Source of the DNA: Eledone cirrhosa
Lineage: Eukaryota
NCBI GenBank assembly: GCA_964016885.1
Contig: OZ024761.1
Coordinates: forward strand, 26,908,001-26,972,000
DNA: 64,000 bases
Direction of reading: 5' to 3'
Shown here: positions 20,224 through 20,425 of the stretch, one piece after another
How the letters are laid out: the number at the start of each line of letters is the position of its first letter
Numbering within the stretch: the first letter of the stretch is position 1
Program-made: the position numbers and the translations under genes
Notes under the pieces: generated by a model
What the model saw: the letters and a program-made list of their open reading frames with translations, nothing else
Database searches by the model: none
What the model was told of the DNA's origin: nothing

Positions 20224-20422
20224 GGTGGTTACACAACAGTTAGTTCACCATACCGAGAACAATTGTTTCACCTTAGCGGATCCTCAGCTCGGAACCGCTA
20301 ATGTGAAACAATTGTTCTCGGTATGGTGAACTAACTGTTGTGTAACCACTTCTACCTAACTCGTCCCATGGACTGAGTGCTCTACCACTACGGATATTAC
20401 TTTCCAGTGTTCTACCACCTTA

Positions 20423-20425
<3 letters not shown>
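20224..20425. mobile_element. Penelope-pLTR-like fold-back element, family A
   Basis: Inverted arms at about 20225-20279 and 20295-20349, TGAGTGCT at 20374-20381, and a 3' end at (TA)n. Confidence 0.8.
20253..20292 (-). ncRNA. Minimal type I hammerhead ribozyme with a complete core
   Basis: Minus strand CCGAG-CTGAGGA-TCCGCTAAGGT-GAAA-C-AATT-G-TT-CTCGG: 5-bp helix I, CUGANGA and GAAA boxes, 1-bp helix III with palindromic AAUU loop, and a GUU site. Confidence 0.85.

Follow-up and report, generated by a model that had tools for sequence, protein, structure and literature searches.

A predicted bulged RNA hairpin in the tails of probable Penelope-like islands embedded in simple repeats of Eledone cirrhosa

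Six families of short islands in a 64,000-nt stretch of Eledone cirrhosa DNA (the window) carry a small bulged hairpin close to their 3′ ends. Half of it had been noticed in a first-pass annotation as a TGAGTRCT box, which was taken for a conserved cis signal. We find that GAGT of this box is the 3′ strand of a helix and that the complementary ACTC lies upstream in all six families. The conserved pairing argues strongly that the module is a conserved RNA structure, made of a CUC:GAG helix, a bulge and an inner helix of free sequence. Judged by their build, the islands are most likely 5′-truncated 3′ ends, or non-autonomous derivatives, of endonuclease-bearing Penelope-like elements (PLEs) of the Hydra clade. 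The cis signal thus survives as a feature of PLE-type 3′ ends and not as a stand-alone DNA word.

The window is microsatellite-rich, animal-type DNA; masking of simple repeats leaves 35,103 nt in about 105 islands. TGAGTRCT has nine exact matches, against a shuffle mean of 3.20 (largest 7; none of 100 shuffles reaches 9), and our recount confirmed the letters and coordinates first given for the box. With one mismatch allowed there is no enrichment (49 matches against a shuffle mean of 90). Seven of the nine exact matches lie near island ends, three on the plus strand (5159, 20374 and 20601) and four on the minus strand (5299, 12910, 52440 and 62944). The match at 38904 has no repeat near it and is background, and the one at 55356 on the plus strand is the palindromic family B variant (55358-55365) read on the opposite strand. 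The distances originally measured from box to (TA)n junction hold for A (44 nt), B (44), E (45) and F (54), with 39 nt in the first G copy. Neither G copy ends at (TA)n: G1 ends in (TC)n and G2, the copy at 52440, in non-repeat DNA. As a conserved word the box holds only in part. GAGT is kept, but the first T belongs to the bulge and is therefore variable (family E reads show T>C in 999 of 3891 and in 684 of 8641 cases), and the upstream ACTC partner and the covarying inner helix had been missed. We rejected a coding origin of the box (Leu-Ser-Thr/Ala), since the frame in family E is closed by a stop two codons before the box and synonymous changes were not seen. A minus-strand tRNA A-box or splice donor, considered by eye in family A, is not common to the other families.

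From 5′ to 3′ the module consists of ACTC, an inner helix of 3-5 bp, a loop, a bulge of one or two T on the 3′ side and GAGT. The inner helix differs between families: GTCC/GGAC in A, TACT/AGTA in E, CAGT/ACTG in F, CAAG/CTTG in B (with a long loop), TACA/TGCA in G1 (TGTA in G2) and TGC/GTA in H. MAFFT misaligned the helices of five modules, and pairs were therefore counted by script. Over the six families, 17 of the 18 cells of the first three inner pairs are paired; re-pairing of the 5′ and 3′ strands gives a mean of 10.2, and 8 of 720 permutations equal 17. We also ran a descriptor, ACTC-helix (at least 3 bp)-T/TT-GAGT, on the 35,103 unmasked nt and on dinucleotide shuffles. With short loops it finds 5 matches against a shuffle mean of 0.27, and with long loops allowed 7 against 0.94; neither count is reached by any of 300 shuffles. 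All seven matches lie 44-92 nt from a (TA)n run, one of them (5302-5376) being a weak, wobble-only fit. G1, E2 and G2 escape detection because of a mismatch, a private change and an insertion, respectively. The descriptor was built from the same islands on which it was scored, and two of the 15 family pairs, E-G and E-H (the latter alike near the box), align better than all shuffles; the six families are therefore not fully independent, and these statistics overstate independence. The other 13 pairs show local similarity reached by at least 25 of 300 shuffles, in agreement with the original remark that the families have little else in common.

Folding gives a mixed picture. The minimum-energy folds of E1, E2, A, F and G1 contain ACUC:GAGU, and outer-helix pair probabilities are 0.55-0.96 across E1, E2, A and F. 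They are low in H (0.21-0.24), E3 (0.47-0.53, partly another inner fold), B1 (0.13) and B2 (0.01). In G2 the outer pairing is absent; H and E3 form it weakly, and in B it loses to other pairings. Among whole-tail folding z-scores only that of family A (-2.16) is notable. When a column of the family E reads is called variable if at least 4% of reads carry a variant, leaving out three columns with an odd window copy, 1 of 16 paired, 0 of 3 RCT, 3 of 8 loop or bulge and 23 of 101 other columns vary. The difference between paired/RCU columns (1/19) and loop/bulge columns (3/8) is in the expected direction and not significant (Fisher p 0.065). The family E stretch is present in sequencing runs of several organisms; no RNA run was seen among the sequencing runs listed. 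Rfam gave no window match at gathering score, and below threshold only generic miRNA hairpins on fold-backs.

Table 1. Islands, modules and related repeats by position in the window (B partners are discussed in the text)
Feature	Position	Strand	Details
A island	20213..20425	+	Inverted copy, turn, direct copy, module, 3′ end at (TA)n
A hammerhead-like half core	GAAAC 20305	+	In direct copy, with palindromic stem III
A module	20359..20381	+	ACTC 20359-62, GTCC/GGAC, 3-nt loop, T bulge 20374, GAGT 20375-78, GCT 20379-81; pair probabilities 0.89-0.96
E copy 1 island	5078..5211	+	Between (TA)n runs; turn inside stem III palindrome
E copy 1 module	5140..5166	+	ACTC, TACT/AGTA, TT bulge, GAGT, ACT; pair probabilities 0.81-0.89
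E copy 2 island	20467..20653	+	Module 20582-20608
E copy 2 module change	20597	+	Private G>A breaks one inner pair; reads carry G
E copy 3 island	12865..13037	-	Module 12936-12910
F island	62890..63125	-	Module 62971-62944: CAGT/ACTG, TT bulge, GCT; pair probabilities 0.72-0.74
G copy 1 island	35391..35564	-	Flanks TC/C-rich, not TA
G copy 1 module	35458-35430	-	TACA/TGCA with one mismatch; GAGT then AAT
G copy 2, decayed	52399..52505	-	ACTC removed by insertion in 5′ strand; no inverted copy seen
G copy 2, intact 3′ strand	box 52440-52447	-	TGTA-TT-GAGT-ACT
H tail-only island	26411..26482	+	Between (TA)n runs
H module	26425-26447	+	TGC/GTA inner helix (one G-U), TT bulge
B copy 1	55314..55821	-	ACTC 55469-55466; core CTGATGA..GAAAC
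B copy 1 partner 1	55406-55401	-	TTGAGT; 5-bp inner helix, 49-nt loop
B copy 1 first-noticed variant box	55365-55358	-	
B copy 2	5255..5720	-	ACTC 5410-5407; inverted copy stops in CA-rich flank
B copy 2 partner 1	5345	-	G>T; first-noticed box 5306-5299
SINE-like repeat copies	10053-10210, 16700-16895, 17369-17562, 27408-27594, 35160-35338, 52651-52837 and others		

Eight of the ten box-bearing islands are built as simple repeat, inverted copy, turn, direct copy and simple repeat (Table 1). The inverted copy is joined head to head in E1-3, A, F, G1, B1 and B2 and is absent in H and G2. It stops shortly before ACTC: by 5 nt in E and A, about 4 in F, 7-14 in G1, 4 in B1 and 9 in B2. Most of these stops are at TA(T) merging into the flank; TA microhomology blurs that of F, and those of E2 and E3 were placed by eye to allow for a 2-nt change and for a 1-nt indel. 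Counted from the first letter of ACTC, the direct copy continues for 58-82 nt (156 in B); it ends in (TA)n in eight of the ten islands. From GAGT to this end there are 39-57 nt in the window and 27-45 nt in three published consensi, so that spacing is not the fixed feature it had seemed. The final 60-90 nt (~160 in B) are absent from the inverted copy, and the one-sided tails measure 62-87 nt (~160 in B). Since the inverted copy stops before ACTC and the direct copy ends after GAGT, the module fills the tail and is bracketed by both junctions. Sequencing data record the same upstream junction in family E: in run X14, 3528 of 22,860 reads pass from the element into (TA)n at 20576, which is 5 nt short of ACTC, and 104 contig ends do likewise in run X1. 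Tail-only islands, too, begin before ACTC, by 14 nt in H and by 12 nt in the group of metagenome locus L019.

A, B, E and F have GAAA, a palindromic stem III and UH, as in the second half of a type I hammerhead; Rfam gave no hammerhead match. The canonical CUGAUGA core occurs only in B1, with one change in B2; in E, A, F and G the first half is degenerate or cut by the turn, leaving the GAAA half only. Reads that extend upstream of the family E core have a non-canonical first half, as may be the case in non-autonomous derivatives. The module follows GAAA by 47-62 nt in E, A, F and G and by 76-78 nt in B, and no copy reaches further than ~130 nt upstream of its hammerhead-like core. A Pfam search covering 150 of the 172 longest non-repetitive window frames gave no relevant RT or GIY-YIG match, and C-terminal ORF motifs of EN+ PLEs have no match within the window. 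Some GAAA-plus-palindrome islands have neither tail nor module, at 54954 (+), 50158 (-), 20780 (-) and 3212-3268 (-, a family F copy), and pass into simple repeats 54-72 nt later; they look like copies that ended at the upstream start site. At 16450-16560 (-) an island end carries TGAGTATT after a tract resembling that of family F and may hold a decayed module.

The homologous box of family B is ambiguous between two partners of its ACTC. Partner 1, TTGAGT, lies 87 nt from the end and in B1 has the 5-bp inner helix with a UU bulge, but is changed by the G>T in B2. The box first noticed, 40 nt further downstream and 47 nt from the end, has the spacing of A and E, is followed by RCT and is intact in both copies. 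Forced folds favour partner 1 by 2.4 and 4.2 kcal/mol, and in B1 the downstream box pairs locally in a different hairpin. The B1 tail (55382-55358, minus strand) also contains a second GAAA-plus-palindrome and an 8-bp hairpin with the variant box as its 3′ strand; B2 retains this only in part.

Published elements extend the comparison beyond the window. We read six Hydra consensi (File S7 of PMC8557442) by eye after the descriptor had been fixed. Hydra-2_Amil, from coral, has GCTC:GAGC, TACAC/GTGTA, a TT bulge and ACT, 56 nt after GAAA by hand count; Hydra-2_Ajap, from sea cucumber, has GCTC:GAGC, TGCT/AGCA, a TA bulge and ACT, 51 nt after GAAA; and Hydra-1_Crog, from a copepod, has CAGT/ACTG, an AG bulge, an outer T-T mismatch and ACT, 60 nt after GAAA. 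Relative to ACTC:GAGT, the GCTC:GAGC of two of these is a compensatory change of the outer pair. Hydra-1_Obim, Hydra-1_Ajap and Hydra-1_Amil end 49-61 nt after GAAA without the module, and we read them as tail-less ends that stop where the upstream junction would be expected. In 5 of 26 Hydra hammerhead rows (File S2 of PMC8557442) ACTC/GAGT forms stem III, and in one row stem I. These are the four pairs of the module's outer helix, and a hammerhead stem might be what the module derives from or imitates.

PMC8557442 reports that nearly all Hydra families target (TA)n, that the Hydra hammerhead near the 3′ end has a short palindromic stem III, that a one-sided tail is optional, and that the canonical hammerhead core is universal in the clade. 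The islands resemble this clade in their (TA)n target and in the module, present at the same distance from the hammerhead in three of the six consensi; they differ in having ACTC:GAGT against GCTC:GAGC and in that most window families are without the canonical first core half. The clade is defined by RT phylogeny, RWK and DKT motifs, a CxCX5C linker and an EN without CCHH, whereas the window copies are ORF-less. The (TA)n target is not diagnostic of Hydra because it is common to Neptune and Naiad. From the common module, spacing and target, and not from an ORF, membership of the Hydra clade appears probable, and an autonomous partner is presumed. Naiad elements have an N-terminal EN, no canonical hammerhead and (TA)n targeting; the 3′ ends of four Naiad consensi from cephalopods, and of one other consensus, show no resemblance to the islands, and at the 28 of 54 GAGYRCT places examined in the Naiad and Chlamys supplement files the module is absent. 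Non-LTR retrozymes, tandem units each with a type I hammerhead, were rejected as a source: the islands are single or inverted, not tandem. An inverted 5′-truncated copy, a hammerhead in the pLTR and a tail on one end are features of PLE insertions in the available text of PMC8557442, PMC3846280 and PMC4209133; published tails are 30-40 nt, and those in the window are longer. The host elements are of a known kind, and the module itself is apparently undescribed in the literature searched, from which subscription journals, Repbase reports and some supplements were outside scope. The main text of PMC8557442 does not mention hairpin, stem-loop or bulge, and no description of the module was found in the available portions of PMC3846280, PMC13282606 and preprint 10.64898/2026.07.22.740005.

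What might such a module do? We favor, with moderate confidence, a reading in which the module is a sense-RNA element bound by the RT-endonuclease and sets two internal starts, one on either side. Among the three functions first offered for the box, recognition by the RT/endonuclease is the best fit, but of a folded single-stranded structure and not of a linear site. The RNA module would comprise (A/G)CUC:GAG(U/C), a bulge of 1-2 nt, mostly UU, in the 3′ strand, a free inner helix of 3-5 bp, a variable loop and an unpaired (A/G)CU directly 3′ of the helix. An RT-GIY-YIG protein would bind it in sense RNA and would recognise the invariant CUC:GAG next to the bulge and the unpaired RCU by their sequence, and the inner helix by its shape. 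The protein would then cut both (TA)n strands and prime two cDNAs. One, starting 39-57 nt 3′ of GAGU, would become the direct copy with the module included; the other, starting 4-14 nt 5′ of ACUC at UA(U) microhomology, would become the inverted copy without it. Head-to-head joining of the two, often at or near the palindromic hammerhead stem (the E1 join falls exactly within self-complementary stem III), would leave a fold-back island with a tail on one side, and the module would serve as the ruler for both internal start sites.

Known systems offer partial parallels. As described in the available text of PMC11167929 (Frangieh et al. 2024), a purified Poseidon PLE (PAc, Anolis) cuts both strands of AT-rich DNA and begins cDNA synthesis at two internal sites, one at either limit of a tail that lies downstream of the hammerhead. 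The reaction depends on RNA 3′ of the first start, hammerhead cleavage is dispensable, the enzyme is modelled as a dimer, and its binding motif is mapped only to ~150 nt. The islands would resemble PAc, so described, in the two internal starts bounding a tail and in an AT-rich target cut on both strands; they differ in that the PAc region is protein-coding with an AC-rich stem-loop and a 30-40 nt tail, and the RCUC/GAGY module was not found in the PAc RNA letters of Fig. S1 of PMC11167929. In stringent LINEs (UnaL2, ZfL2-1/2), according to the available text of PMC1636434 and PMC4176376, the RT protein binds 3′ stem-loops, and the bulge of UnaL2 is required for mobility. These hairpins, as far as that text describes them, are likewise short, bulged and 3′, with a conserved stem and a variable loop; they belong to another RT class with one start at the RNA 3′ repeat and no inverted copy, and we claim no sequence similarity. 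TERT-binding elements of telomerase RNA, HBV epsilon and HIV TAR are small bulged helices that their proteins read next to the bulge. The module compares with these by analogy only, and nothing in the window reaches an Rfam gathering score. According to PMC8557442, PLE RTs form the sister group of TERT.

The hairpin could instead act on the opposite strand, in an antisense RNA template, or as single-stranded DNA, in the first-strand cDNA, for example as a signal for endonuclease cutting or in self-priming of the inverted copy. Self-priming on the antisense template is argued for head-to-head inversions in the available part of PMC3846280, and earlier work cited in that of PMC11167929 found the Penelope tail to be needed for endonuclease recognition of plasmid DNA. 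The wobble pairs, one G-U in H and one A-C in G1, do not fix the strand: the A-C would be G-U on the antisense, but the G-U in H favors sense, and the G1 mismatch looks private because the other G copy carries the Watson-Crick base. We regard the other strand as unlikely, given that in the Hydra consensi the module has the same sense as the ORF and the hammerhead and that the sole reconstituted PLE uses sense RNA with two internal starts, as the available text of PMC11167929 has it. It is also quite unlikely, in our estimate, that the hairpin is bound by a host protein or serves RNA 3′-end formation, stability, export or hammerhead folding, its place being incidental. Its steady distance of 47-62 nt from the hammerhead GAAA would suit such a role, as would the report in the same portion of PMC11167929 that the PAc hammerhead cleaves only with protein present. 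However, the module is retained where the hammerhead core has decayed (E, A, F and G), both insertion junctions track it, and the tail-only H and L019 islands keep it and little else.

Residual homology plus chance, a few letters left in old relatives with helices picked by eye, is very improbable. The descriptor was indeed built post hoc, E can be aligned with G, the fit of G2, B2 and H is poor, and a looser descriptor yields 2 background matches among 7 in the window. Against this stand the shuffle and permutation controls and the coral, sea cucumber and copepod consensi, whose helices are new in sequence and still paired. It is base pairs, not letters, that are conserved, contrary to homology without extra conservation, which the first-pass annotation had named as its own refutation. 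A duplex DNA element, either a pseudo-LTR promoter/initiator or a linear endonuclease site, is hardly credible: CTC/GAG and RCT are conserved in sequence and promoter motifs are reported in PLE pLTRs (PMC3846280, available part), but double-stranded DNA leaves the covarying inner helix, the compensatory outer pair and the variable first T unexplained, and the promoter/initiator option raised for the box is not supported.

If we return to the module as a sense-RNA element, a wider possibility, which we put forward tentatively, is that it is a clade-wide docking site, from cnidarians to molluscs, arthropods and echinoderms, for a dimeric telomerase-like RT-endonuclease with active sites on either side. 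Were this so, a PLE would for the first time have a defined RNA recognition element, and one geometry would explain both the tail and the head-to-head inversion. One enzyme could serve many unrelated non-autonomous families, and the module would be the nearest retroelement counterpart to the TERT-binding and template-positioning elements of telomerase RNA. How a PLE RT chooses its RNA and two internal starts has been mapped, in the available text of PMC11167929, to a need for ~150 nt in one reconstituted element. A module of 23-30 nt with set pairs, bulge and spacing allows exact mutations to be tested. It could also be turned into a covariance model for classifying ORF-less short TA-embedded fragments, and would offer a telomerase-related insertion enzyme that targets microsatellites a minimal cis signal.

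A metagenome scan with a free inner helix returned at least 118 loci, with at least 119 matches in at least 76 clusters. Among the matches listed, 7 of 76 clusters have a helix of at least 4 bp against 2.1 expected (p 0.006) and 9 have one of at least 3 bp against 5.7 expected (p 0.11); none combines a fold-back with a hammerhead, and none has the hammerhead-module geometry. The metagenome matches are mostly chance. One cluster (L019, L050, L053 and L118) is a 96-nt island between TA runs with a 5-bp inner helix. Viral control scans gave 15 loci, one with a 4-bp and one with a 3-bp inner helix, and nothing element-like. L075:334, L081 and L102:301 are repeats related to one another that end in TA. 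They carry ACTC, GAGT and GCT, with TTG/CAA as inner helix and a bulge of 5 nt, and are possibly a long-bulge variant of the module; L075 has two tandem copies with a microsatellite between them. In L027 and L085 a canonical hammerhead core lies 239 nt upstream of the match. We rejected these two as modules: the match is inside a second hammerhead-like unit, with ACTC part of stem I, and they represent another PLE-like family. L058 and L089 repeat a short GC-rich unit between TA/TG runs and matched the pattern with a wobble-rich inner helix.

The window holds other repeats as well. A 449-nt pair (7240-7686 and 19743-20190), 95% identical and adjoining (TA)n, has two small ACTC/GAGT hairpins without a bulge; we take it to resemble an RTE-type LINE, read on the minus strand, at its 5′ end. 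The segments 55828-55986 and 17144-17216, with an (AGAAT)n tail and beside family B1, are presumably an RTE-type LINE 3′ end. A SINE-like repeat of 150-190 nt is present in more than 15 copies, several as inverted pairs (Table 1), and may resemble octopus SINEs. G-rich 20-mer, 50-mer, 83-mer and (CAC)n tandem arrays occupy 20944-21461, 21520-22463, 28764-29125 and 31603-32244. Finally, 13081-13168, which adjoins family E copy 3, and ~18400-18470 are TA-rich perfect fold-backs of flanking DNA in which element sequence is absent.
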